Below, one piece after another: positions 7,238-63,804 of a stretch of 64,000 nt of DNA; position 1 is the first letter of the stretch, and each line of letters begins with the position of its first letter. Made by a program: the position numbers and the translations under genes. Source of the stretch: Escherichia phage RB49. The stretch is taken from sequence record NC_005066.1. The stretch is one strand, 5' to 3'. The notes below the pieces were generated by a model. The model saw only the letters and a program-made list of their open reading frames with translations. It was not told the DNA's origin and did no database searches.

Positions 7238-8967
7238 ATGACGCATTAACATCATTTCGCGGGATGCGCAAGGAAGCGGAAGAAAACCCGATTGATAAAC
7301 TTAACAAATTAGATAAACTTGATTCTATTGATAATTTGCAAGCCGCTACCGAATTGGTGGCAGAGACAGTAGAACAAAAATCTAATGAAGTTGTTGGTGC
7401 GGTAGAGGATAACACCGCAGCCAATGAATTGACGGCCGAGAATACCCAATCTACCGCTGGCAATACCCAAAAAACTTATGAAGAATTGCAAAAACTCAAT
7501 AATTTCTCTTCTCAGATGAATGAGAAATTACGTGGTTTTGGTGTTATGATGGAACGTAGATTTGGTGTTGTCAGTAAAATGGCTAGCGGTATTGGTGCGA
7601 TTGAAGAAGCACTGAAAAAACCGGAACAACCGCAAACAATGCCATCACCTCAGCCATTTTTGCCTACTGTACCGGAACAGCCTAATAATGACAACTATCA
7701 AGGTCTTCCAAAGAAAAAACCGGATGTTGATGACCGAAAGAAAAAGAACGCCACAGATAAGCGTAATGCTGATTCTATGGAAAATCTTCTTAAAGTTGTT
7801 CGTGGAGGATTTAAAGAAACCATAGGTATCTCTAATAAGGTCTTAGGGATGTTATTTAAGATCACTTTGACCGCTATGGCAGAAGCCGCAAAATGGGGTG
7901 CTATTTTGATGGGTATTGTTTTTGTCATTGATACCCTGATGGTTCATTTCAGATATTGGAGTGATTTATTCGAAACAAAATTCAAGGAATTTATGGATAA
8001 GGCCGGAGGATGGGCTGGTCCTATTAGCGATATTTTAACTACTGTTCGTCAGGTTCGAGATTATTGGTCTAAAGGAGAATATAAAGAATTAATTAAATCT
8101 CTGGTTATGGGTATTGGTGATGCGTTCTATAAAACCTTTATCCAACTTGATCGAATTATCACTACTGGTATTGCTAAAATTCTTCGCATGATCCCTGGTA
8201 TGGGTGATTATGCCGATAATTTAGAATACGGTGCTTTAAAGTCTGCTGTTGCTAAAGGCTATAAGCCAAATGAAAGAGAACTCGAATTAATGGATAAGGT
8301 CGAGTCTGAACACGAAGAAGACAAATATGGAGAGCGCACAGGATGGACAGGAAAAGCCCGTGATATTGGCGAGGCCATAGGCGAATCTATTAAAGATAAA
8401 TTTAATGAAGGTCTTGTTAGTCTGGGCTGGAGAGATCAAAAGGATGTTGACGCAGAGAAACGACAAGAAGAATTAAAACGCGGGGAATACAAGTCTGTTT
8501 CTGCTGAACAACGATCTGCTAGTCGTAAACTTAAAATTAAAAGCGAGGGAGCGATCAATAATATTAATGAAGTTATGGAGAATTTGAGCGGTGACTATGA
8601 CAAAGAAAGAATGGAAGAGTTGAAAAAGGATATTGATGTTTACCGTGAACAAGTTCAAGATCCTACATTAGTTGAAAGTGATCGTTCTCAGTTAGAGCGT
8701 CTTATTGAAAAATTTGATGAGATGTATGCTGATAAAACTAATGGTGTGGTTCCAACTAACCCTGTTCCTGCAACTGAAACGGAAACAGCAAAACAAGCGG
8801 AACGTACTGAACAAATGCAGAAACAAGCTGCAATCCAGCAACAAACGACAAATCAGACCTCAAACGTAAATAATACACAAATTGTAACAAACAATAGAAC
8901 TATTAAACAGGGTGCACCAACAACTAGAATTGATGCCCCTGGTACAATTAATATGGGGAACTTTTAA
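7234..8967 (+). CDS. 29: gp29 baseplate hub/tail-length determinator
   Basis: Size (577 aa vs 590) and synteny. Confidence 0.7.
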   Translation: MNDALTSFRGMRKEAEENPIDKLNKLDKLDSIDNLQAATELVAETVEQKSNEVVGAVEDNTAANELTAENTQSTAGNTQKTYEELQKLNNFSSQMNEKLRGFGVMMERRFGVVSKMASGIGAIEEALKKPEQPQTMPSPQPFLPTVPEQPNNDNYQGLPKKKPDVDDRKKKNATDKRNADSMENLLKVVRGGFKETIGISNKVLGMLFKITLTAMAEAAKWGAILMGIVFVIDTLMVHFRYWSDLFETKFKEFMDKAGGWAGPISDILTTVRQVRDYWSKGEYKELIKSLVMGIGDAFYKTFIQLDRIITTGIAKILRMIPGMGDYADNLEYGALKSAVAKGYKPNERELELMDKVESEHEEDKYGERTGWTGKARDIGEAIGESIKDKFNEGLVSLGWRDQKDVDAEKRQEELKRGEYKSVSAEQRSASRKLKIKSEGAINNINEVMENLSGDYDKERMEELKKDIDVYREQVQDPTLVESDRSQLERLIEKFDEMYADKTNGVVPTNPVPATETETAKQAERTEQMQKQAAIQQQTTNQTSNVNNTQIVTNNRTIKQGAPTTRIDAPGTINMGNF

Positions 8968-51698: not shown

Positions 51699-54638
51699 AT
51701 GGCAGATTTAAGCAGAATCCAATTTAAACGCACTAGCACTAAAGGTCGTCGACCTGATGCTGGTACGATGAATCCGGGGGAATTGGCAATCAACCTTGCG
51801 GATCAATATCTTCTTACTAAAAATGATTTCGGTGCTATTATCAATTTAAGTTGTCCTCCGGTTTATGACCGCGATGTTACAATGGCAGGTAAGGTTAAAG
51901 GTAATAATTATATCTTAAGTAAAACCGCTAACTATCTGGAAGATCAGACAGCGCGAGATCTTAATTACTTTGGTGCTTTCCGTACCAATGGTCTTGATGG
52001 TCTTCTCGAACTCACGCTAAACGTTCCTCATTCTTCTGGTGTTCAGCATGGTCGAGGATTTACTTTCCAGTATGGACATACTGGATCACGAGTAGAAACC
52101 TATGGCTATAATAGAGAAGGTCAAAAAGCATTTAGTTATAAAATGTATCACGAAGGCGATAAACCTACACCATCGGAATTGAACGTTTACAGCAAACAAG
52201 AAATTGACCGTATGTTTGTTAAGAACGTTAAAATGGTTGTTCCTTCTGGTGGTGCAACCCGTGGTTATTTTAAAATTGCATCCGCAATGATCCCGCAGAG
52301 TGGTCGGATGGTGTTTCTGCGAATCTATGATGGTAATGGATATAATGTAAACTCATATGATCAAGTTGATTTTCTTGAAATTGTTATTCGTAGTGGTAAT
52401 AATAACCCTAAAGGTGTTAGTATTGCTGCTTATCGTCGAAATGCTCTGAACGTTCATCAAGTATTTGCGGTTAATACTTCCGGTGATAACTACGATATCT
52501 ACGTTAACTACGGTCGTTACACCGATAACGTTATTGTCGAATACGGTAAAACTAATGATGTTACTCTGACAGTACATGATGTTCCTGAATTAACTCTCGT
52601 TAAACCTTCTGTTGGTGTTACCGATGCTCGTGTTATTACAATGTTCAACACCGAAAACAAAGCCGGAACGTTGATGTTTGATAATAACCCGCAAGGGACT
52701 TACGATATTATCAGTTTGAGTAATGCTGCTGATAATAATAGAAATTATCTGCGTAAATTCCGAAGCAAAGCTAGTGAAATGGTTTGGCATGAAACCGTTC
52801 AGGGTGCTGTATATCGTCTTGCTACTGGTGCTACAGATTCTACAGAAGTTATTAGAATTGATTCTAATAGTGCAATACCGGGTAATTATAAAGGATATGT
52901 AATTACTGGTAAAATGGAATTGCACGGTAGTGGTAATGCGATGACTTTACATCGACAGACTGGTCAAGCTGCATATATGGCGTGGTGGGATCGTCGTGAT
53001 GGTAAAAACCAACGTAGTGGTTATATCGGTCATGCGGATGGTACTAGTGATGGTTTTGTGTGGCGTAATGATGTTGGTGCTAACTCATTTGATTTGGAAG
53101 GTAGTGGACAAGTAAATTTGACTACAGGAAAAACAAAAATTGTATATACCAATGGTCAATATTATTCCGCTAACGCCGATGCATACCGTATGATCTTTGG
53201 TAATTACGGTGCATTCTGGCGTAATGACGGCACTAAAGTTTATCTTCTGTCTACTGCTGAAAATGATAAGTATGGTGGATGGAATGCCTATCGTCCATTC
53301 ATTTATGATTTAACTTCCGGTAACGTTCAATTAGGCGGTGATGGTAACGAAGAAGCATTAACGTTAGAACGTGCTTCTCGTGCCGCTCGCTTTAGTAATG
53401 ACGTTTACATTAAGAAAGGGCATTTGACTTTCGACGCTGGGCGATTAAATTCCCGCGATTACTTCCGGTTTAACCATTGGGGTGATAGTAATAATGCTCG
53501 TGATAACATCTTACAGCTTGACGATAGCAAGGGTGCTCATTTTACCACTGAACGTACTTTAGCAACTGGTGCAATTAAAACTAAATTCTTCGGTGATTTG
53601 GAATCTGCTGGTCAAATTAAATGGGGTAAAGGGACCGCCACATCTACGTTTACTCTACGTGTATGGGGTAACGATAGTCGTAAACAAATATTTGAATGCG
53701 GCGATGAAAGCGGGTGGCATTGGTATACCCAACGAGCGGGGGGTCCTGGTACAAATGAGATTATATTCAATGTTAACGGGAAATTTCAATCTCGGGATTT
53801 TGAGACTTCCGGTAATATTAAGATAACTGGTCCAGACATTGAGTTTCGTCGCACTGGTAATAAGCACATCTGGTTTAGAGATCCGAACGGTTTAGAATTA
53901 GGTTTGATGTACTGCGATGATGCTGGTGCTATTCGCTTCCGTGGTCAGAAACAAGCCCAGACGTGGAAACTTGCGGATAAGATGATTCATCTTGAGGCGG
54001 GGACTGTCGGCGGATCTGATAAAGGTTTGATTCGTGGTAGTGTTGCTGGTGGTAGCTGGGCTAGCTGGCGTGATCGTTCTGCCGGAATCCTCGTAGACTG
54101 TCCTCAATCAACCGATTCCGCTCATAACATCTGGAAAGCGACTCATTGGGGAAAATATCATATTGCGGCAATGGGTGTACACGTTCCTGGCGGCACTATA
54201 GGTAATGCTATAGCACGCCTAAACGTTAATGACGCAAACTTTGAATTTAGCGCCTCCGGTGACATGTCGGCAGGACGTAACGGTAGCTTTAACGATGTGT
54301 ATATTCGTTCTGATGCTCGACTTAAAATCAATAAGGAAGAGTATAAAGAGAATGCCACCGATAAAGTTAATCGCTTGACTGTATACACCTATGATAAGGT
54401 TAAATCTTTAACCGACCGTACTGTCATTGCCCACGAAGTTGGTATTATTGCACAGGATCTTGAGAAAGAATTGCCGGAAGCAGTAACAACTTCTAAGGTT
54501 GGCGATCCTGATAAGCCAGAAGAAATCTTAACAATTTCTAACTCTGCTGTCAACGCTCTTTTAATTAAGGCGTTCCAGGAAATGAGCGAAGAACTTAAAG
54601 CCGTTAAAGCTGAACTAGAGGAACTTAAAAAGAATTAA
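51699..54638 (+). CDS. 37: gp37 long tail fibre distal subunit (receptor-binding) with C-terminal chaperone domain
   Basis: N-terminus matches T4 gp37 (IQFKR....G.RP.A......GELAINL.D); 979 aa. Confidence 0.9.
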   Translation: MADLSRIQFKRTSTKGRRPDAGTMNPGELAINLADQYLLTKNDFGAIINLSCPPVYDRDVTMAGKVKGNNYILSKTANYLEDQTARDLNYFGAFRTNGLDGLLELTLNVPHSSGVQHGRGFTFQYGHTGSRVETYGYNREGQKAFSYKMYHEGDKPTPSELNVYSKQEIDRMFVKNVKMVVPSGGATRGYFKIASAMIPQSGRMVFLRIYDGNGYNVNSYDQVDFLEIVIRSGNNNPKGVSIAAYRRNALNVHQVFAVNTSGDNYDIYVNYGRYTDNVIVEYGKTNDVTLTVHDVPELTLVKPSVGVTDARVITMFNTENKAGTLMFDNNPQGTYDIISLSNAADNNRNYLRKFRSKASEMVWHETVQGAVYRLATGATDSTEVIRIDSNSAIPGNYKGYVITGKMELHGSGNAMTLHRQTGQAAYMAWWDRRDGKNQRSGYIGHADGTSDGFVWRNDVGANSFDLEGSGQVNLTTGKTKIVYTNGQYYSANADAYRMIFGNYGAFWRNDGTKVYLLSTAENDKYGGWNAYRPFIYDLTSGNVQLGGDGNEEALTLERASRAARFSNDVYIKKGHLTFDAGRLNSRDYFRFNHWGDSNNARDNILQLDDSKGAHFTTERTLATGAIKTKFFGDLESAGQIKWGKGTATSTFTLRVWGNDSRKQIFECGDESGWHWYTQRAGGPGTNEIIFNVNGKFQSRDFETSGNIKITGPDIEFRRTGNKHIWFRDPNGLELGLMYCDDAGAIRFRGQKQAQTWKLADKMIHLEAGTVGGSDKGLIRGSVAGGSWASWRDRSAGILVDCPQSTDSAHNIWKATHWGKYHIAAMGVHVPGGTIGNAIARLNVNDANFEFSASGDMSAGRNGSFNDVYIRSDARLKINKEEYKENATDKVNRLTVYTYDKVKSLTDRTVIAHEVGIIAQDLEKELPEAVTTSKVGDPDKPEEILTISNSAVNALLIKAFQEMSEELKAVKAELEELKKN
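54309..54635 (+). other. intramolecular chaperone (peptidase S74-like) domain; predicted autocleavage before Ser of SDARLK
   Basis: YIR|SDARLKINKEEY... matches the SDARLK cleavage motif of phage fibre/endosialidase chaperone domains. Confidence 0.7.
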
Positions 54639-54680: not shown

Positions 54681-54920
54681 GTGGTCTATAATATCATCAT
54701 TGGTGCTTTGTCTAATTTCGGAATGAAATTATTGTCAAAGTTAATTAGTGAAAAGATGCTCACTAAAATTTTCTTCTATTGCGCTCGTCGTCTTGCGGCT
54801 TATACCAATACGCCAATTGATGATCGTTTTGTGGAAGAACTTTATAAGGAGTTTAATAAAGATCAGTCAGAAGATAGTAACGAGCAAGATAAACCTAGTG
54901 ATAGTCAACTACCTAAATAA
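54681..54920 (+). CDS. small protein (79 aa) with hydrophobic N-terminus
   Basis: Track ORF between 37 and t (position of gene 38 in T4, no similarity). Confidence 0.45.
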   Translation: MVYNIIIGALSNFGMKLLSKLISEKMLTKIFFYCARRLAAYTNTPIDDRFVEELYKEFNKDQSEDSNEQDKPSDSQLPK

Positions 54921-54953: not shown

Positions 54954-55610
54954 ATGCAAGTTTCTGAAAAAGGGAAAGACTTTGCTATCTCAAATGTCCT
55001 GCGCGCTATTTTCACAACTAAAAGCACGGAGTTGCTCGTACTTCGTGTTTTTGCTGCCGTCGTGTTGTCCATATTAGCATTTGTCGTTTATAGTAAAAAC
55101 GAGTTATTTGCGCTTTATAAAGAGACTCGTTATGAGACTTATGCTCACATTCTCCAGGTAGAGAAAGACCGCAATTTTGATAATGCAGCACAGGAGCAGT
55201 TACAGATAGTTCATGTGTCGGCTGATGCCGATTTTTCTGCTGTTTTTAGTTTTCGTCCGAAAAACCTAAACTATTTTGTTGATTTGGTGGCATATGAAGG
55301 AAAGCTACCGCACACAATCGATGAAAAAAATTTAGGCGGATTCCCTATCAATAAAACGAGTGAAGAATATCGTAGGCATCTTTTAGGTAAATCCTATTTT
55401 ACCGATAAAGATTTCCAGTATATTCCATCAAGAGAAAAGAAATTAGAGAATATCGATATAGGTTTCATGTATTCTTGTCCTATATTCAATCTCGATAATG
55501 TCTATTCTGGTAGTATCGCCATTTCATGGAAGAATAAACCGGATATTGACATTGAGAATTTAGATACTCTTTGCAATCAATCTGCCAGAATCCTCGGAAG
55601 GATTAGATAA
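54954..55610 (+). CDS. t: holin
   Basis: 218 aa, collinear with T4 T (QLQIVHVSADADFSAVFSFRPKNLNYFVD..AYEGKLP, MYSCPIFNLDN, ARILGR). Confidence 0.95.
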   Translation: MQVSEKGKDFAISNVLRAIFTTKSTELLVLRVFAAVVLSILAFVVYSKNELFALYKETRYETYAHILQVEKDRNFDNAAQEQLQIVHVSADADFSAVFSFRPKNLNYFVDLVAYEGKLPHTIDEKNLGGFPINKTSEEYRRHLLGKSYFTDKDFQYIPSREKKLENIDIGFMYSCPIFNLDNVYSGSIAISWKNKPDIDIENLDTLCNQSARILGRIR

Positions 55611-55614
55611 CTTA

Positions 55615-55650
55615 AAGGGGAAGCCTTTCGGCCTCCCCTTCTTTTTATTG
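55615..55650. terminator. hairpin terminator after t (convergent genes)
   Basis: GGGGAAGCC-tttc-GGCCTCCCC followed by TTCTTTTTATT. Confidence 0.6.
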
Positions 55651-55893
55651 GCGCATAGAAGCCCCTGAATCGCATTTTGACGCTGTATGATGAAAACAGG
55701 TAGCGTACCAGTCATCGGCTTGTTTGTCTTCGTCAGAAAACGCGTAATTTCGTTGTATGCCGTTTTCTACTTTGACAAGTGCAATAGCTGTTTCTGGAAG
55801 ATCAATCAATCGGACAAAATCACCATCTTCCCACTCTACACGAGCAATATCATAGCCCATCTCAAAGTATACAATCGCTTGTTCTAATTTCAT
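55645..55893 (-). CDS. small protein (82 aa)
   Basis: Track ORF. Confidence 0.45.
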   Translation of the reverse strand: MKLEQAIVYFEMGYDIARVEWEDGDFVRLIDLPETAIALVKVENGIQRNYAFSDEDKQADDWYATCFHHTASKCDSGASMRQ

Positions 55894-56219
55894 TCTGGAA
55901 ACTTCCCGTAAACATTCTCTGCCAGCTTACGTGCATCTTTTACAATATCTTTCATATAATGACTATAATTTTTAGCTAGATCAATGATGCAATCAACAAA
56001 GAAGTAATAGCGTCGCAGTGCTACCAGCTCAACATCTTCAAGATGACCATTTTCTCCAATCGCTGAAATATGTTTAAATTCCTTTCGGATCGCGTCCATC
56101 GCTACATTAACTTCTTTTATAATATCTTTCGTATTATATGCACCTCGACTAATCAAAATTTTGGTTAGGTCTTCTGCTTTTTCATGAAAGTTGTCAATTT
56201 CAAACTCGATCATAATCAC
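55890..56219 (-). CDS. small protein (109 aa), paralog of 56328..56660
   Basis: Shared C-terminus ...DARKLAENVYGKF vs ...EARIMTENIFGKF. Confidence 0.55.
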   Translation of the reverse strand: MIMIEFEIDNFHEKAEDLTKILISRGAYNTKDIIKEVNVAMDAIRKEFKHISAIGENGHLEDVELVALRRYYFFVDCIIDLAKNYSHYMKDIVKDARKLAENVYGKFPE

Positions 56220-56262
56220 CTCTCATAGTTTCACGCTGTTGTGTCAACATTTTTTCGTGGTT
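56220..56262 (-). promoter_or_regulatory. early promoter-like element (TTGACA -35)
   Basis: gttgtgtcaacatttttt upstream of gene start. Confidence 0.4.
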
Positions 56263-56327
56263 TACTAATTCTATACATTGTAATAGCATAACCAGTGAAA
56301 TTTTCAATGATTCATCATCTTTCATAA

Positions 56328-56660
56328 TCAAAATTTACCGAAAATATTCTCTGTCATAATTCTTGCTTCGTCGATTATTTTCGTCATGTTCATGGTGTAG
56401 TTATGACCATTTAGTGCCTTAATAACAACGAGCAAGGAATCTAAAAACACTCGATACCGGGTATATTCTACGCTATTTGTGAATACCGATGTTTTCTCTA
56501 CTTTATCGATCAGATAGCCTAAAGCCGATAGCGCCTCGTTTACTTCCCTTGTTACTTTATCGGCGCTAAACAACACCGGATAAAGACGCGGTGTGATTAA
56601 CCGCGCTGCCTCTTTCAATTCGGTCGCTTTCCATGATTCATATTTGTCATAGTTAAACAT
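56328..56660 (-). CDS. small protein (110 aa), paralog of 55890..56219
   Basis: See paralog. Confidence 0.55.
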   Translation of the reverse strand: MFNYDKYESWKATELKEAARLITPRLYPVLFSADKVTREVNEALSALGYLIDKVEKTSVFTNSVEYTRYRVFLDSLLVVIKALNGHNYTMNMTKIIDEARIMTENIFGKF

Positions 56661-56672
56661 TGTATAGTCCCC

Positions 56673-57005
56673 TTACAGATGAAAACCTGTTACGATCACC
56701 GCATCGATCATACCGCTAGGAATAAACGGTTCACCCTCTTTTATTTCAACTTTGAATTGATGCCATTTCGCTAATACTTCTTCCGGTACACCCAGCGATT
56801 CGGCGTCTGCTTTAGTTTCATCCATAATCCAACTAGGCTGCATGAGAGCATAGTTTACATAGTCCATTTCTGGGGTCATGTCATCAATGTTAATATATTT
56901 GCAGTTGACGCGTTTCAGAATTTCAAATTCTTTATTGTCAACCTGTACCATGTATAATTCAGTAGTTTCTGGAATCAGTTCCCACACAATCAGTACATTT
57001 TTCAT
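56673..57005 (-). CDS. small protein (110 aa)
   Basis: Track ORF. Confidence 0.5.
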   Translation of the reverse strand: MKNVLIVWELIPETTELYMVQVDNKEFEILKRVNCKYINIDDMTPEMDYVNYALMQPSWIMDETKADAESLGVPEEVLAKWHQFKVEIKEGEPFIPSGMIDAVIVTGFHL

Positions 57006-57013
57006 AGTTCACC

Positions 57014-57382
57014 TCACTTAACAAAGATTTTCTTTAATGCTTTCAGGATCGTTGCTTCCGGCGCTTCTTCCGGTGGAGGAAGCAATTCTACCACTTCCTC
57101 TTCCAACTCGATATAGTCTACCAGATATTCTACATAGAATGCAAGTGCTTCCATGAAATTAGATGCTACATCCGATTCACCACAAGCGCCTACATGCATT
57201 GTATAAACATCACTGCGATCAAGTTTGTGGATGCTTCCCAGATAGTTTCGGTTATACCAGACTTCCCACACTTTCAACTTTCCGGTTTTTGTTGATGTTT
57301 TATAATCGGTTTCGTAATGATGCAATTGACGTTGCAGATCATTGATAATAACACATTTTTCGTAATTGTTTTGAATTTCCAT
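57014..57382 (-). CDS. small protein (122 aa)
   Basis: Track ORF. Confidence 0.5.
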   Translation of the reverse strand: MEIQNNYEKCVIINDLQRQLHHYETDYKTSTKTGKLKVWEVWYNRNYLGSIHKLDRSDVYTMHVGACGESDVASNFMEALAFYVEYLVDYIELEEEVVELLPPPEEAPEATILKALKKIFVK

Positions 57383-57392
57383 GATGCAATCC

Positions 57393-57584
57393 TCACTTAT
57401 CGTTCAGAAGTTCTAAAACTTTCTGTCGTACTTTGTCAATATTAGTTGATTCAAAAACTGTACGGTATCCCCAGCTTTGACCGTATGATCGCGAGCAATC
57501 CCCATATCCCCATTGTTCAATCTGATAGTATTCAAGGAATGGGTGCTGCCGAACTATGATACCATCGCGATTAAAAATTACCAT
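57393..57584 (-). CDS. small protein (63 aa)
   Basis: Track ORF. Confidence 0.45.
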   Translation of the reverse strand: MVIFNRDGIIVRQHPFLEYYQIEQWGYGDCSRSYGQSWGYRTVFESTNIDKVRQKVLELLNDK

Positions 57585-57610
57585 AATATAATCCTCACGT
57601 CAACAACTTA
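57585..57610 (-). promoter_or_regulatory. compact early promoter-like element
   Basis: cctcacgtcaacaacttatttt. Confidence 0.35.
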
Positions 57611-57895
57611 TTTTCGGTTGTGGTCACGATATGTTTTAAAATATCCCTCGTACCACGGTAAAATATCTGGATTTTTACCACTATACAGACCTTTAACCAT
57701 CATGTCAATAAGGCCATCTGGTGTTTGATAGTTTCCAGCTTTTATAAGCTCTCTGATTAAAATCTCTCTGTATATGTCTTTCGGATCTTCGTAATCAACT
57801 TGTATTGTGGTTGTGGTCTCATTCAATTTGGTTTCTGGAGTATCTCGCATCGCATCCCACCAATCTTTTGTGATCTTCATGTTATTGAATTGCAT
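57608..57895 (-). CDS. small protein (95 aa)
   Basis: Track ORF. Confidence 0.5.
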   Translation of the reverse strand: MQFNNMKITKDWWDAMRDTPETKLNETTTTIQVDYEDPKDIYREILIRELIKAGNYQTPDGLIDMMVKGLYSGKNPDILPWYEGYFKTYRDHNRK

Positions 57896-57906
57896 AATTT
57901 AACCTC

Positions 57907-58665
57907 TTACTTGCAAACGTATTGATCTACATCAATTGCGCCACCGAATGTAGGATGACGTTTTTCGAATCGAATAGTTCCGTCGTTTGGTTCGAAAACG
58001 GAGTATTCATATAGATCTTTCTTGCCAACATTCTTATAAAACCCGCCTTTAGTCATAACGGTTTCTTGTACGTTTGCTTTGTGTACGTTGTATTCATCAA
58101 TGTATACAAAATCAACCATCTTCCCATTTTTAATGGTTACTTTAAGATCTCCTGGTTGGTTTCCATATTTTGCATACAGTGGAGCTTCTTTAATTTTGGT
58201 GGAAATTCCATCTTTCATACTCCACTCATAACGAACGGTGCATTGATAGGTAAAAGTTTCGACCTTCGGTTCTTCCACCACTTTTTCTTCCTGTTTCGGT
58301 TGTTCTTCTTCAACCTTCGCAGAAGTCTCTGAATCGCTTTCTGACGCGGTTTCTTCTTTAGGTAATACATTCATCAAGTTTTGGATTTGAGCGTTGTATA
58401 CAGCCTCCAGTGGCTGAATCTGCCCGATATTGATCATTGTATCACGAACAGTTTTATTCCAGTTGCGTTGCTCTTGTTTAAGCGACGGGTCAATCTTAAC
58501 AGCCTTAACATATACTTCATGAAGTTTAGAATCAAGTGCGGAGATAGACTCATTAGCACAAATAAACTTCTCTGATTTGGTAGTAGCTTTAGCGCAATCA
58601 AAGGACGCAGCGTTAGCACCGAAAGCAGTAGCAGAAAGAACGATAGCAGCGATAATGTTTTTCAT
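57907..58665 (-). CDS. secreted DUF1311/LprI-like protein (252 aa)
   Basis: Signal peptide MKNIIAAIVLSATAFGANA; FDCAKATTKSEKFICANESISALDSKLHEVY resembles DUF1311 N-terminal motif. Confidence 0.5.
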   Translation of the reverse strand: MKNIIAAIVLSATAFGANAASFDCAKATTKSEKFICANESISALDSKLHEVYVKAVKIDPSLKQEQRNWNKTVRDTMINIGQIQPLEAVYNAQIQNLMNVLPKEETASESDSETSAKVEEEQPKQEEKVVEEPKVETFTYQCTVRYEWSMKDGISTKIKEAPLYAKYGNQPGDLKVTIKNGKMVDFVYIDEYNVHKANVQETVMTKGGFYKNVGKKDLYEYSVFEPNDGTIRFEKRHPTFGGAIDVDQYVCK

Positions 58666-58735
58666 AATATATTCCTCATTGTTTTGTCTTGATGGGAGTA
58701 TCTTACTACTCCCTTAATCCGGTGTCAACTACTTT
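58666..58735 (-). promoter_or_regulatory. PeSL-like early promoter cassette
   Basis: tattcctcattgttttgtcttgatGGGAGTAtcttacTACTCCC...ggtgtcaactacttttt. Confidence 0.6.
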
Positions 58736-58891
58736 TTAAATTTCTTCTACAGTAAAGTCTTCAATGTTGTTGTGCTCGGCGAACGTTGCCAGACCAGCAT
58801 TCCATGCATCATCCTCAGAGAAGAATACACCGTAACGTTCATATCCTTTAGCGCCTTCAAATTTAACCATTAATTTGTGAGTATGTTTCAT
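58736..58891 (-). CDS. small protein (51 aa)
   Basis: MKHTHKLMVKFEGAKGYERYGVFF...; track ORF is extended into the PeSL. Confidence 0.5.
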   Translation of the reverse strand: MKHTHKLMVKFEGAKGYERYGVFFSEDDAWNAGLATFAEHNNIEDFTVEEI

Positions 58892-58961
58892 TTTGATTCT
58901 CCTTCGTTGTCTTGATGAGTTTAGTATAGGGGATCGCCGATCCCCTGTCAACAACTATTTT
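58892..58961 (-). promoter_or_regulatory. PeSL-like early promoter cassette
   Basis: ttttgattctcc...AGGGGATCgccGATCCCCT gtcaacaactatttttt. Confidence 0.65.
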
Positions 58962-59174
58962 TTAATTTTTACCCGCTCGTGCATTAATACGCATTTTCTG
59001 CATAGCCATGATCTGGTTTACTGCTTCTTCTTTACGTTCTTGCGTGATAACGTGACCAGATTCCGCAAACTCTCCCGCAACTTCTTCTACGATCTCGCGA
59101 ACTTGAGAACGTCCAAAGATGCGGTTTCCTTCGTAGCTCATAAATTCAGTCACTACTTGCTCGATAGATTTCAT
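58962..59174 (-). CDS. small protein (70 aa)
   Basis: MKSIEQVVTEFMSYEGNRIF...; start moved to ATG after PeSL. Confidence 0.5.
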   Translation of the reverse strand: MKSIEQVVTEFMSYEGNRIFGRSQVREIVEEVAGEFAESGHVITQERKEEAVNQIMAMQKMRINARAGKN

Positions 59175-59238
59175 GTGATTCTCCTTCTTTCGTTTGGTAT
59201 GGGAGTATAATACTACTCCCATTTCTTTACGTCAACAA
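59175..59238 (-). promoter_or_regulatory. PeSL-like early promoter cassette
   Basis: gtgattctcc...GGGAGTAtaatacTACTCCC...acgtcaacaactatttt. Confidence 0.6.
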
Positions 59239-59400
59239 CTATTTTAAATTATTTTCGACCTTCACCCATTCCGCGTATTCTTGCGCGGCTACTTTCGGAT
59301 TTAGTCCGTCTTCGTACATTGCATCAAGTAATTCTTTGTCGGTGGGCTTATACCCTAGATAAGCCTCCACCTGATTTTTCCAAATTTTATACCAGTTCAT
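59239..59400 (-). CDS. small protein (53 aa)
   Basis: MNWYKIWKNQVEAYLGYKPTD...; start moved to internal ATG. Confidence 0.45.
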   Translation of the reverse strand: MNWYKIWKNQVEAYLGYKPTDKELLDAMYEDGLNPKVAAQEYAEWVKVENNLK

Positions 59401-59404
59401 ATTA

Positions 59405-59677
59405 TCACCAGTCAAGAGCGCGTGTCTCTGCGTCTTCCCATGCTTGATCCATAACAGCCTTGAAAACATATTCTAAAGTATCATCTTTAGAGAATCCGAA
59501 GACCTTAGACGGAATATCTTCAATTGCTACTCCCGCAACTTCTGCATTACGCGCTTGGCAATAATGCAACTCTAAGTTATCGAGATAGCGACCGCCTAAT
59601 TTCTCCATATCATCCCAGCATTTCCAGTAGCCTACTTTATCTGCAATTGCTAACACTTTGCTGTTTTTGTTGCTCAT
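59405..59677 (-). CDS. small protein (90 aa)
   Basis: MSNKNSKVLAIADKVGYWKCWDD...; ATG directly after PeSL. Confidence 0.5.
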   Translation of the reverse strand: MSNKNSKVLAIADKVGYWKCWDDMEKLGGRYLDNLELHYCQARNAEVAGVAIEDIPSKVFGFSKDDTLEYVFKAVMDQAWEDAETRALDW

Positions 59678-59748
59678 CTTTGATTCTCCTTTTGTCTGGT
59701 ATGGGTGTATTATGTAGTGTTGGATTCTGTAAGTCAACAACTTTTTAA
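59678..59748 (-). promoter_or_regulatory. PeSL-like early promoter cassette
   Basis: tctttgattctcc...tctggtatgggtgtattat...aagtcaacaactttttaaa. Confidence 0.65.
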
Positions 59749-59778
59749 AATAAAAAGCCGACCACAAGGATCGGCTTA
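59749..59778 (-). terminator. intrinsic terminator
   Basis: GCCGACC-acaagga-TCGGC hairpin with T-run on minus strand. Confidence 0.6.
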
Positions 59779-59786
59779 ATAATCAG

Positions 59787-60182
59787 TTACTTACTAAATT
59801 TCTTTTTGGCTTCGTCTACCGCATGAGATGCCAGTACCGCAGCCGCATGTGCACTTTTATCTGTGTTGCAGAGAACGCCCAGATAAACATCACGCCAAAG
59901 TTTAATCATCTCGTAGATCATATCAATATCATTTTCTTGTTTGTTGGCGATGCTATTCGTCGTTATCTGGTAAGGTAACGGCTTGATCTGTACTGGTTCC
60001 GCCATCGGGCTAATAGGTTTCGGATCTGTCATAATAGGTGCTGTTGTGGGCGGTGTTTTCCATACACCATTATTCCACGGTTTAATCGTTGTGTCGTAAA
60101 GTTTATAAGGATTTTTGTCTGGGTCAACCATCCATGCATGATGAGTACCCAAACCATTTGAAGTGATGCGTCGTTCAGTCAT
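59787..60182 (-). CDS. hypothetical protein (131 aa)
   Basis: Track ORF. Confidence 0.5.
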   Translation of the reverse strand: MTERRITSNGLGTHHAWMVDPDKNPYKLYDTTIKPWNNGVWKTPPTTAPIMTDPKPISPMAEPVQIKPLPYQITTNSIANKQENDIDMIYEMIKLWRDVYLGVLCNTDKSAHAAAVLASHAVDEAKKKFSK

Positions 60183-60185
60183 AAT

Positions 60186-60389
60186 TTATTTCCTCTCTGA
60201 AAATTCTTTCATCAAGCTGTCGATCTTTGCTCTGTGTTCTGGCGTGTTTGTCATCTCTGCTAATTTGCTCAGAGATTCACTGGTGATCCGGTTGGATTCT
60301 TCCAGTGTTTCAACGACCATTGGCACAATCTTTTTATTGTTGTACACAAATGCAATATAACCGCCTTCTGGATATTCTTTCATAATCAA
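60186..60389 (-). CDS. small protein (67 aa)
   Basis: Track ORF, coupled to gene 52. Confidence 0.5.
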   Translation of the reverse strand: MIMKEYPEGGYIAFVYNNKKIVPMVVETLEESNRITSESLSKLAEMTNTPEHRAKIDSLMKEFSERK

Positions 60390-61765
60390 CCCTTCTTAAG
60401 TTCTTTAAGATCTTTCTTATATTCCTTCATTGCGGTCGTCTTTGTCCAATACTCATATTCACTATGATGTTTATCGGCATCTTTGACCAGTCGATCATAC
60501 TCTTCTTGAGTAACGCTATACAATGGCATAGAAACTAGCTTATCGGCGTATGGACGCAGTTTTTCATGTCCATTGATGGATTGCATTACCTCGGACTTTT
60601 TCTTGCCCTGTAGCTCGATTTCGCCCTTAATTACGCGATCGATAAATTCGGCTTTAGCCATTGCATAATTGTATGCTTCCAGCGTTTCCGCTTGCATCAA
60701 TTCAATGCGTTTATCGACATACCCTAATCGGATTTCGACGAATCGACGGATCAGATCGCTCGCTTTCTCGAATACTTCTACTAAACCACGTTCGTTAACT
60801 ACTACGATATTCTGGGCTACTAACTGCGTTAGTTTAAAATCCTTCATGATTTGCTCATGTCGAGCGGATTCATCTTCGCTTTTGAAATAATCGCGTTTCA
60901 GTGTTACTTCAAATCTGAATCCGTCCTTAGAGCAACGGTCATTATACGATACAATCAGATCTTTTTCTTCCAGTGCATCCAGTACCGCTACATATTCTTC
61001 ACGGTCGAACTTATAAGGAACTTCTGATATTGTCAGTTTAGTCTTGCCGTTTAGTTCATATGTACCCTCAAGAATCACACCATCGCGATCATCTCGCGGG
61101 ATAACTTTACCTGTGAATTTCGGGAATTGAACACTAGGTTCTTTATCCAGTTTTCCGGCAAGTGCTAGCTCTGTGCATTCAATAAGGCTTTCCAGTGAAT
61201 GCGGTAAAATGTCAGTTTTATACCCTGTAGCAATACCACTAATACCATTAGCCAATACCATTGGCACAACTGGCAAGTAGAACGCTGGCGGGATGTGTTC
61301 CAGATCTTCGTGCTTAGGTGCGCAATTCATATCTTTATAGATTTTAAAGAAGTTTTCATGCACACGAGCAAAGATATAACGTGCCGCACCTGCTTTCTGG
61401 ACTAAACGCGATCCGAAGTTACCTTGACCGTCAAGCAGTGGAGTATTATTGCTCCATGTATTCGCCATGAGTGATCCGGCTTCTACGGCATTAGTTTCCC
61501 CGTGGTGATAACCCAACTCAGCAACACCAGATCCAATATCTGCCATCTTACGGAATTTCTTACGGTCGCCTTTACTCTTTTGCAAAGCACATTCCATAAC
61601 AAAGCGTTGCACTGGTTTAAGCCCATCCACTAATTGAGGAATCCCGCGTTCCTCAGCAGAATAGATCGCATATTCCTTAGCTTCATTATGTACAATGCTT
61701 TCAAGGCTGCGGTAAGTAAATGTGTTTACAATTTGACTAATTTTATCCATCTTCACCTCATACAC
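60386..61765 (-). CDS. 52: gp52 DNA topoisomerase II medium subunit (GyrA-like)
   Basis: RGIPQLVDGLKPVQRFVM matches GyrA/ParC N-terminal motif; 459 aa. Confidence 0.88.
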   Translation of the reverse strand: MYEVKMDKISQIVNTFTYRSLESIVHNEAKEYAIYSAEERGIPQLVDGLKPVQRFVMECALQKSKGDRKKFRKMADIGSGVAELGYHHGETNAVEAGSLMANTWSNNTPLLDGQGNFGSRLVQKAGAARYIFARVHENFFKIYKDMNCAPKHEDLEHIPPAFYLPVVPMVLANGISGIATGYKTDILPHSLESLIECTELALAGKLDKEPSVQFPKFTGKVIPRDDRDGVILEGTYELNGKTKLTISEVPYKFDREEYVAVLDALEEKDLIVSYNDRCSKDGFRFEVTLKRDYFKSEDESARHEQIMKDFKLTQLVAQNIVVVNERGLVEVFEKASDLIRRFVEIRLGYVDKRIELMQAETLEAYNYAMAKAEFIDRVIKGEIELQGKKKSEVMQSINGHEKLRPYADKLVSMPLYSVTQEEYDRLVKDADKHHSEYEYWTKTTAMKEYKKDLKELKKG

Positions 61766-62120
61766 GCTTACAAATCACATTCTTTACTTTATCAGATTTA
61801 TCAGCCCAATCCAATAGCCATTTTAACGGAAGGATTGACACAATAAACGGGGCAGCAATCAAAGCAAACATGATACACCTGATAATCAGGAAAACGCAAG
61901 TGACAAAACTAGCGATAGTGATCCCGACAAAACAAAATACCATAGAAAACAGAGTAATGATATAGAAAGGCCAGAATACCCACTCCCGCATCTTAACTCC
62001 TTTGTATTCTCTGAATTGCTTAAAATCTACAAACAACTCTCGGATAGACGCGTACAGGACCGAAAAATCATCTTTCATTGCTCTGAATGAGCAATCTTCT
62101 ATTTTAGAGTGACCTAGCAT
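61758..62120 (-). CDS. membrane protein (120 aa)
   Basis: Two long hydrophobic segments. Confidence 0.5.
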   Translation of the reverse strand: MLGHSKIEDCSFRAMKDDFSVLYASIRELFVDFKQFREYKGVKMREWVFWPFYIITLFSMVFCFVGITIASFVTCVFLIIRCIMFALIAAPFIVSILPLKWLLDWADKSDKVKNVICKRV

Positions 62121-62122
62121 TA

Positions 62123-62416
62123 TTAACCGCCTTTCATCATTGATACTGGAATCGTTTTCTGATTGGTGTATAATTGGCCTACTTCAATTTTTTCTTGAAT
62201 CACCACGACGTTACAATATCCACTGTCTTTAAGTTTTCTGATAATGACTCTCTTTTGTTCGTCGGTGATAGGATTGACTGTTCTCACCAATTCACCGCAA
62301 ATAATAGCACCATCTTTACAATTACCAGTAACTTTCATGCTACGACCGTGAACAACAACCACGTCACCGTAAATCACATTTTCGTCGTCGTATTTGGTAA
62401 TAACCGTGACCGTCAT
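62123..62416 (-). CDS. small protein (97 aa)
   Basis: Track ORF. Confidence 0.45.
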   Translation of the reverse strand: MTVTVITKYDDENVIYGDVVVVHGRSMKVTGNCKDGAIICGELVRTVNPITDEQKRVIIRKLKDSGYCNVVVIQEKIEVGQLYTNQKTIPVSMMKGG

Positions 62417-62461
62417 AATGTATACCCTCTAAGAAAGGCCGCGCAAAGCGGCCTATGTTGA

Positions 62462-62788
62462 TTATTGTTCTACAGTATAGCCGTTGTTTTCAAGCCATGC
62501 AATAACAATCTTTTCGCCAATTTCATCGAGCATTTCATCATAGCCATATTCTTTGATGAAAATCGATGGATCGTTATTGCTTACTACGTGCTGGATCACA
62601 ACATGTTCAGGAATTGCGTCTAGCAGTTCGCTATGATCATACTCATTAACGATATCTTCAACACTAACATTATTAACCAAATCAACATCATCCATAGTCA
62701 CAGTAACGCGACCGGACGGACGCAATGAATATTGACTACTTTCAACTTCAACATGTGCACTTTCGCAAGTAACTTTCATATCAACCAT
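62462..62788 (-). CDS. small acidic protein (108 aa)
   Basis: Track ORF. Confidence 0.45.
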   Translation of the reverse strand: MVDMKVTCESAHVEVESSQYSLRPSGRVTVTMDDVDLVNNVSVEDIVNEYDHSELLDAIPEHVVIQHVVSNNDPSIFIKEYGYDEMLDEIGEKIVIAWLENNGYTVEQ

Positions 62789-62802: not shown

Positions 62803-63804
62803 TTAGTAATGGCTAAAACCTTCGGTCACATCTTCAACCACATAGTAACGATGACAGCGCATTTTGGCATTCGCATAATCTTTCGGGATACTTACAACGT
62901 GACGCGGATCAACTTTACATTTAATGATTCGGCCTCGTCCACCGCCATAGTGCGGAATATAGTGTTTCGCTGCAACGTGGAGGCCATTAGAGCAAGTGCG
63001 ATCATCATCTGGGTCCACGTCTTTACGCTTCATTTTAACCGTGCGCCCTGGGCTATTATCAAACGTATGCGTAAAGAAATCTTTATAATCAACATCAACA
63101 CGTTTCCATGCATAGAAACAACCATCTTCCCCGATCTCAATGTCGTTGTGCTCTAAGAAGTCAAACAGACGATCTACGGCCTTACGGCTAGGGTTTTTCT
63201 TGCACTTCTCAAAGAAGTTCAGATAGTGCGTATATGGCTTATTCTCTTTAATCGACTCCACAACTCGACGAGTCAGATTATTATCAAGAACAATATTATG
63301 ATAATACACAATACCATTTTCGATACGGAAAGCTCCGTGATAATATACTTCAACCGCTTTCTTAATGTCAATCAGCGTAATTGCTTTAATGAAATCATTC
63401 TGTTTAACTGCTTCCAGTGCTTCCTTAAAGTTAACATGTGATGGATCGGCAGTATAAACAATGTCACCACATGTAATAGTAATAAACTTAGTTGAGGCTA
63501 TGGCTACGATTTTTGAGGAAGTAGTCACGGGCTTTTTTGCGCGTTCACCGCCTTTTCCTTTACTGGTTTTACGGCGTGCTTTACGTTTTTCTAGTGCCTT
63601 GCGACCTTCCGCTACTGCGTCTTTCTGAATCAGTAATACGCGGGAAGCAGTACGACGAGATACACCAAATGCTGCCGCAAGTGCTTCGCGGGTAGTAAAC
63701 TTACCTTCGCCCCACTGTTTAGCCAGTTTGATTTGTTTTTCAGAATCCAGGCATTGAACGTTACGGTCAGAGACGGTGATTTTTGCTTTAGTCATAGTAT
63801 TCAT
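62803..63804 (-). CDS. rIIB: rIIB protector from prophage-induced early lysis
   Basis: Matches remembered T4 rIIB segments (KAVDRLFDFL, EDGCFYAWK, TFDNSPGRTVKM, HPRHVVSIP, KMR..YYVVEDVTE); N-terminal HTH. Confidence 0.8.
   Translation of the reverse strand: MNTMTKAKITVSDRNVQCLDSEKQIKLAKQWGEGKFTTREALAAAFGVSRRTASRVLLIQKDAVAEGRKALEKRKARRKTSKGKGGERAKKPVTTSSKIVAIASTKFITITCGDIVYTADPSHVNFKEALEAVKQNDFIKAITLIDIKKAVEVYYHGAFRIENGIVYYHNIVLDNNLTRRVVESIKENKPYTHYLNFFEKCKKNPSRKAVDRLFDFLEHNDIEIGEDGCFYAWKRVDVDYKDFFTHTFDNSPGRTVKMKRKDVDPDDDRTCSNGLHVAAKHYIPHYGGGRGRIIKCKVDPRHVVSIPKDYANAKMRCHRYYVVEDVTEGFSHY

Follow-up and report, generated by a model that had tools for sequence, protein, structure and literature searches.

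The t–52 interval of an RB49-like T4-type phage holds fifteen small early genes and no recognisable motA or asiA

We analysed a 64,000-nucleotide stretch of phage DNA (NC_005066.1; hereafter the window, 64 kb of a ~165-kb genome) and, within it, positions 55645–60389, the interval between the holin gene t and gene 52 that in T4 holds asiA, asiA.1, arn, arn.1-4, motA and motA.1. We are confident that this is the t–52 hyperplastic region of an RB49-like (genus Krischvirus) T4-type phage that is free of MotA and AsiA and works with two promoter classes. In this arrangement a leftward block of 15 small accessory early genes fills a frame of conserved genes (t, 52, rIIB) whose intervening segments have had their content replaced entirely, and the whole asiA–arn–motA module is missing from the position at which T4 and many T4-type phages keep it. 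The block is probably driven by at least four sigma70-consensus promoter early stem-loop (PeSL) cassettes together with read-through from upstream. The recognisable promoters would fall into two classes only, sigma70-type early and gp55-type late, and delayed-early or 'middle' expression would presumably come from early-transcript read-through and tandem early and late promoters, in keeping with published proposals for RB49.

That RB49 lacks the MotA/AsiA switch is correct and already known. The part of Nolan 2006 (PMC1524935) that cites Desplats 2002 gives RB49 as having no motA, no asiA and no middle-promoter consensus, and the relevant passages of PMC1524935 and PMC2984593 trace the observation to Desplats 2002, so that it has been in print since 2002. 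AsiA orthologues are described in RB69, 44RR, Aeh1 and KVP40 and not in RB49 (PMC1524935), and middle-type expression in RB49 has been proposed to arise from overlapping early and late promoters (PMC2984593, Clokie 2010).

The interval matches 58 phage records, the best of them 97–98% identical over its full length, and all of these best matches are RB49-like coliphages of the genus Krischvirus (97.1–97.7% identity at 100% coverage). Across its full length the window aligns collinearly to positions 15.6–77.8 kb of RB49, at 95–98% identity, and the closest record to the window as a whole is ~96% identical over 25 kb. The RB49 genome used for comparison here is the complete but unannotated assembly OZ035808.1, and a second complete genome, Krischvirus LF73P4, was used alongside it.

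MotA and AsiA were sought by several routes. Searching with the T4 proteins (tblastn) matched 1143 and 1173 phage records for MotA and AsiA, respectively, and homologues from Gaprivervirus, Gualtarvirus, Tulanevirus, Acinetobacter, Jiaodavirus, Muldoonvirus, Jiangsuvirus, Biquartavirus and Otagovirus phages and a 230-kb Aeromonas phage were the sources of profiles (MotA, n = 7; AsiA, n = 10) that were run in HMMER with all filters off against six-frame, stop-to-stop open reading frames (ORFs) of at least 25 amino acids (aa). Against the window and complete RB49 (4690 ORFs) the best E values were 0.17 for MotA and 0.075 for AsiA, which is noise, and against complete LF73P4 they were 0.0088 and 0.06. 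The same profiles recover distant homologues when these are left out of the alignment: Otagovirus AsiA, 29% identical to T4 AsiA, at E 1.7e-10; AsiA of the 230-kb Aeromonas phage at 5e-24; Acinetobacter MotA at 1e-34; and UPEC01 MotA at 4e-48. Pfam at E ≤ 1 gave no MotA or AsiA match in any interval ORF, hhalign comparison of every interval ORF with the MotA and AsiA alignments gave probabilities below 1% (for AsiA at most 0.7%), and none of the ten T4 t–52 genes has a Krischvirus homologue by tblastn. The sequence-only reading of this DNA had held that the interval contains no recognisable motA or asiA, and Pfam, custom hidden Markov models (HMMs), tblastn and hhalign bear this out; a profile search had been named beforehand as the refuting test, and it finds no homologue in the window, in RB49 OZ035808.1 or in LF73P4.

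A few matches were followed up and set aside. The MotA match at 0.0088 in LF73P4 falls on a 51-aa ORF that runs antisense within a gene of 408 aa, itself without a Pfam MotA domain, and the weak MotA-HMM matches at ~114 kb in RB49 and ~89 kb in LF73P4 are this 408-aa ORF and its antisense frame, again without Pfam MotA, and are noise. The same holds for a T4 MotA tblastn match at window positions 55953–55630 (E 5.4). The ORF at 59405–59677 agrees with AsiA in its length of 90 aa and in nothing else (hhalign 0.1%).

In T4, UPEC01, LemonAid, JD18, PS2 and PSTRCR_121, motA lies within ~0.1–1.2 kb of gene 52; it adjoins 52 in every MotA-bearing phage fetched, and asiA adjoins t wherever the fetched flank reached far enough. 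This placement is seen in Acinetobacter, Serratia, Providencia and Klebsiella phages, the Acinetobacter and Serratia ones lying outside Tevenvirinae. In the window the position immediately downstream of 52 is taken by 67-aa and 131-aa ORFans unrelated to MotA. Since even distant phages keep motA beside 52 and asiA beside t, the module was, we infer, once present in the Krischvirus lineage and has been lost from it.

We counted the Mot-box pattern TGCTT.A-N11-13-TA...T against expectations from dinucleotide shuffles, with the early strand of T4 1–50 kb as control. Such promoters, whose search the sequence-only reading had asked for, occur at chance level on the window minus strand (1 versus 1.2 expected) and in RB49 (4 versus 3.9), while the T4 control returned 10 versus 1.8 ± 1.7 expected. 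An unbiased search of every 6-mer at every spacing of 9–20 bp upstream of TA...T recovered two classes in T4, GTTTAC-N18 (early, z 22) and TGCTTT-N13/ATGCTT-N14 (the Mot box, z ~6–7). For RB49 and the window it returned GTTGAC-N18 and TTGACA-N17 (z 30–51) and words from the PeSL stem, and nothing else. The abundance of sigma70-like PeSL promoters, also put forward from the sequence, is borne out by counting: the strict sigma70 consensus is enriched ~13-fold on the minus (early) strand, with 26 versus 1.9 expected in the window and 56 versus 4.4 in RB49, and of the extended −35 motif AGTTGTTGAC there are 21 copies versus 4.55 ± 2.09 expected, 19 of these on the minus strand and five inside the interval. 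It takes the strict consensus and separate counts for the two strands to see this enrichment; a generic promoter scan with loose criteria showed none (21 versus 22.9). The early strand shows no enrichment of the late-promoter motif TATAAATA, and the published idea of tandem early and late promoters is therefore neither supported nor refuted here.

Several points weigh against the two-class, MotA/AsiA-free reading. Thirteen of the 15 interval ORFs have no assignable function, and sequence profiles are blind to a non-homologous functional analogue. Absence elsewhere in the genome is judged from two related complete genomes (RB49 OZ035808.1 and LF73P4), the two-class promoter model and the expression timing are read from motifs alone, and one perfect −35 motif at 57599–57608 is of no use to the gene behind it, which means that not every motif is a working promoter. 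The first two points leave room for a model in which one or more small early proteins, encoded here or elsewhere, remodel sigma70 or RNA polymerase (RNAP) and so create a middle class as analogues of AsiA and MotA. The block sits at the ancestral motA/asiA position, T4-type phages with AsiA but no MotA exist (PMC1524935), which makes partial or alternative systems a known thing, and RB49 still has, elsewhere, three T4 genes directed at RNAP (srd, a modB-like gene and rpbA), along with gene 55, regA and dmd (tblastn). However, the unbiased search finds no second class of upstream box, yet recovers the Mot box of T4, hhalign stays below 1% for every ORF, and the Tad2-like and LprI-like ORFs described below point to counter-defence and periplasmic roles and not to transcription. 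We consider such an analogue improbable. The narrower proposal, that one of the 13 function-less early proteins is an RNAP or sigma70 modifier giving a delayed-early programme, has nothing positive in its favour and is a shade less probable again; candidates could be the helical paralog pair at 55890–56660 or the ORFs adjoining gene 52.

Two other explanations would keep the T4 proteins themselves. A true but highly diverged MotA or AsiA might lie in the interval beyond the reach of profiles, given that the ORFs are small and fast-evolving, that one of them (59405–59677) has exactly the 90 aa of AsiA, and that the helical paralog pair lies close to the asiA position. Against this, the left-out Otagovirus AsiA was still found at only 29% identity to T4, the 90-aa ORF reached an hhalign probability of 0.1%, t and 52 are still ~50% identical to T4, which would make divergence beyond detection unusual, and there are no cognate Mot boxes; we regard this as very unlikely. 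It is just as hard to credit that motA and/or asiA are present in the same genome outside the 64-kb window. Krischvirus genomes do differ among themselves by cassettes, but complete RB49 and LF73P4 have neither gene, the phages inspected always carry motA/asiA in the t–52 interval, which here lies fully inside the window, and the window has no more Mot-box promoters than chance would give. On balance the Krischvirus interval without MotA and AsiA, read by sigma70-type early promoters, is the explanation we prefer, and the negative profile searches and Mot-box counts support, at the level of sequence, the earlier proposal of early/middle regulation without the two proteins.

The block and its flanks are made up as follows.

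54954–55610, plus strand: holin t, left flank; Pfam Phage_holin_T E 4.5e-61; 48.5% identical to T4 t.
55612–55640: candidate bidirectional terminator, a G+C-rich hairpin (GGGGAAGCC-tttc-GGCCTCCCC then TTCTTTTT), read from the sequence.
55645–55893, minus strand: Tad2-like/DUF2829 protein, 82 aa; next to t, at the T4 asiA position.
55890–56219, minus strand: ORFan, paralog A, 107–109 aa; phrog_9457, E 8e-57.
56200–56331, minus strand: small ORF, 41–43 aa, overlapping both neighbours; phrog_17009, E 3e-32; annotated as a coding sequence (CDS) in GoldenSnicker.
56328–56660, minus strand: ORFan, paralog B, 110 aa; phrog_9457, E 4e-43.
56673–57005, minus strand: ORFan, 110 aa; phrog_4658, E 4e-40; no Pfam, NCBIfam or PDB match.
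57014–57382, minus strand: ORFan, 122 aa; phrog_1594, E 9e-26.
57393–57584, minus strand: ORFan, 63 aa; phrog_6957, E 1e-42.
57608–57895, minus strand: ORFan, 95 aa; phrog_15915.
57907–58665, minus strand: predicted secreted LprI/DUF1311 protein, 252 aa; Pfam LprI plus signal peptide.
58736–58891, minus strand: ORFan, 51 aa; phrog_19699, E 1e-40, being residues 22–72 of a longer mechanical ORF; CDS in GoldenSnicker.
58962–59174, minus strand: ORFan, 70 aa; phrog_14966, E 1e-49.
59239–59400, minus strand: ORFan, 53 aa; phrog_8655, E 8e-28.
59405–59677, minus strand: ORFan, 90 aa, of AsiA length and unrelated to it; phrog_7287; hhalign against AsiA 0.1%.
59787–60182, minus strand: ORFan, 131 aa; phrog_15644, E 1e-92; no Pfam or PDB match.
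60186–60389, minus strand: ORFan, 65–67 aa, immediately downstream of gene 52; phrog_15105, E 6e-48; T4 has motA.1 and motA here.
60386–61765, minus strand: gene 52, topoisomerase II medium subunit, right flank; Pfam DNA_topoisoIV E 5e-69; 50.6% identical to T4 gp52.

The small-gene block described from the sequence is thus real, with 15 minus-strand ORFs between t and 52 where about 14 had been counted, and the annotation of the relative GoldenSnicker lists every one of them as a CDS. They encode 41–131 aa with the sole exception of the 252-aa ORF at 57907–58665, which is the only protein of MotA size or larger, in line with the earlier remark that nothing but a DUF1311-like protein is of that size. 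Each of the 15 matches a PHROG family and every one of these families is labelled 'unknown function'; ten of the ORFs had no match in NCBIfam, and four ORFs searched against PDB sequences gave nothing usable, the single match at E < 0.01 being to 23 residues of a designed repeat protein. The proposed paralog pair at 55890–56219 and 56328–56660 stands: both proteins are full-length members of phrog_9457 and align with each other directly (BLASTP E 8e-8), and they are therefore diverged paralogs by sequence.

Four cassettes in the interval share the same architecture, a TTGAC(A/G/T)-17-TAnnnT promoter, a G+C palindrome and a AAGGAGAATCA ribosome site just before a small gene, and are 76–85% identical to copies dispersed through RB49; they are the PeSLs already published (PMC2839356, Arbiol 2010). 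They fit the composite PeSL plan of an AT-rich stretch, a sigma70-consensus promoter and a stem-loop ahead of ORFans. These four and one isolated motif are listed here.

57599–57608, minus strand: perfect PeSL-type −35 motif AGTTGTTGAC; the ATG of the 63-aa gene follows after only 14 nt and thus lies in the would-be spacer.
58684–58745, minus strand: PeSL cassette upstream of the secreted-protein gene; TTGACA-17-TAAGAT, palindrome GGGAGTA..TACTCCC; 84–85% identical to RB49 PeSLs.
58888–58970, minus strand: PeSL cassette; TTGACA-17-TATACT, palindrome GGGGATCG..CGATCCCC in the spacer.
59176–59247, minus strand: PeSL cassette; TTGACG-17-TATTAT; RB49 carries an insertion here.
59709–59777, minus strand: full PeSL; terminator-like stem-loop 59777–59755, then promoter TTGACT-17-CATAAT.

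Judging by its placement, the motif at 57599–57608 is probably a PeSL relic or recombination scar and no working promoter for the following gene, or alternatively a promoter yielding a very short or leaderless transcript. The alignment of the window with RB49 breaks at 59242–59257, inside a PeSL, where RB49 (72540–73042) has an extra ~500 bp that contain two small genes, one with a signal-peptide-like N-terminus, and another PeSL. This insert is a direct example of cassette gain or loss mediated by PeSLs.

The first gene of the block, at 55645–55893, encodes a protein that passes the Pfam Tad2-like/DUF2829 family (PF11195) at 27.9 bits versus a gathering threshold of 25 (E 3.4e-6, profile positions 1–71 of 73). 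Its AlphaFold2 model, with a predicted local distance difference test score (pLDDT) of 70.7, places five antiparallel strands after a single helix, in agreement with the topology of Tad2, an alpha-1 helix and then a five-stranded antiparallel sheet (10.1101/2023.05.01.538930). In SPO1 Tad2 the ligand pocket is formed by W25, N26, W73 and D79, a pair of Trp residues sandwiching the ligand (10.1101/2023.05.01.538930). In an alignment of five sequences W21 of the window protein is invariant and W62 is found in three (F in one, lost in another), and these two could match the ligand-sandwiching pair, whereas the residue after the conserved Trp is E22 here and N26 in SPO1. No PDB sequence matched the protein, even with a profile, and Foldseek returned none either; only eight relatives were found among 1.8 billion representative proteins, and it is very divergent in sequence from the Tad2/DUF2829 sponges and AcrIIA7 (Yirmiya et al.). 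Together, profile and model make the protein a probable member of the Tad2/DUF2829 family and, by analogy, a candidate anti-Thoeris sponge of immune signals (glyco-cyclic ADP-ribose, gcADPR, or His-ADP-ribose, His-ADPR), which would widen the set of candidate anti-Thoeris sponges to a widely used therapeutic E. coli phage group.

The product of 57907–58665 was earlier predicted to be a secreted DUF1311 protein, and this fits what we find. It passes the 22-bit cutoff of Pfam LprI (PF07007, formerly DUF1311) with 26 bits, and it begins with MKNIIAAIVLSATAFGANA/AS, which has the look of a Sec signal peptide with an ANA/AS cleavage motif. The Pfam family is named after the M. tuberculosis lysozyme inhibitor LprI. 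Behind the signal peptide come a helical LprI/DUF1311 domain, an E/K-rich linker and a C-terminal 8-stranded beta-barrel, which is confidently modelled (pLDDT ~90), and the invariant Cys pairs C24/C36 and C142/C251 are consistent with disulfides formed in the periplasm. For the barrel, a relation to lysozyme inhibitors of the MliC/PliC type, 8-stranded beta-barrels with conserved loop motifs, is conceivable. Across all homologues residues 1–134 hardly vary, while at least three unrelated C-terminal domains occur, that of the window, that of Phi1 and that shared by JSE and an E. coli chromosomal copy; Phi1 and JSE also carry a diverged downstream gene.

This variation extends into the neighbouring gene. 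Compared with Phi1, the DNA is 96.9% identical as far as 58264; no identity is left across the barrel, the 95-aa gene stands at 70%, and at 57621 the figure is back to 97.5%, so that the segment swapped relative to Phi1 and JSE is 57622–58263 (minus strand), spanning parts of 57907–58665 and 57608–57895. The central and C-terminal parts of the 95-aa protein co-vary with the C-terminal domain of the secreted protein upstream. With identity lost over the barrel, lowered in the 95-aa gene and restored after it, the two therefore move together as a cassette, and this swap looks like an arms-race locus. The E. coli CP035865.1 homologue (8001–8795 of the fetched stretch) has the same N-terminal half with a C-terminus of the JSE type, and it lies beside hicAB/ydcP and near Phage_pRha and transposase genes, a prophage-like setting; the module is therefore common to lytic T4-type phages and host islands. 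Its role is perhaps in superinfection exclusion or in the inhibition of peptidoglycan hydrolases. T4 Spackle (sp) gives a weak tblastn match to RB49 (OZ035808.1) at ~90.6–90.8 kb (27% over 74 aa, E 0.068), which by sequence may be a diverged Spackle orthologue and which bears on the question of the LprI-like protein as a second periplasmic lysozyme inhibitor.

On the flanks, the hairpin at 55612–55640, with its T and A runs, lies between the late gene t and the leftward early block that converges on it, and is probably a bidirectional terminator. Beyond gene 52, rIIB (62803–63804) is 44% identical to T4 rIIB, and the segment between the two (61758–62788, minus strand) holds three ORFs of 120, 97 and 108 aa unrelated to T4 genes, the 120-aa one being hydrophobic and probably a membrane protein. 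T4 52.1, ac, stp, ndd and denB have no Krischvirus homologue by tblastn, and the 52–rIIB segment, which adjoins the t–52 block, is a second one whose content is fully replaced. To the left of t, at 51699–54638 (plus strand), lies a distal tail-fibre protein of 979 aa, a homologue of gp37, whose C-terminus (...VYTYDKV...IIAQDLEKELPEAV...) we take to resemble an intramolecular-chaperone, self-cleaving domain. Downstream of it there is only a 79-aa ORF (54681–54920), where T4 has gp38.

Compared with T4, the t–52 interval of the window has the same flanks and the same orientation, with leftward early genes converging on t, and small genes in both. The promoters differ: those of the window are of the host-consensus TTGACA type, whereas T4 uses GTTTAC early and Mot-box middle promoters. 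KVP40 and Aeh1, in the account of Pineda 2004 given within PMC1524935, resemble Krischvirus in being without MotA and Mot-box promoters; going by the same account they keep an AsiA orthologue, whereas Krischvirus has neither protein. The t–52 regions of RB49, Phi1 and JSE are the nearest counterparts, with 96–98% DNA identity, the same gene order and the same PeSL architecture, and motA, asiA and Mot boxes are absent from the window and from those phages alike. Within this shared plan the window is without the ~500-bp two-gene insert that RB49 carries at the 59242–59257 PeSL, and Phi1 and JSE carry other C-terminal domains on the LprI-like protein. The window confirms, for one more sequence within the genus Krischvirus, a trait that RB49 has exemplified for more than 20 years, and in this its main claim adds nothing new; what could matter are the accessory genes of the block, the Tad2-like protein and the LprI-barrel protein.

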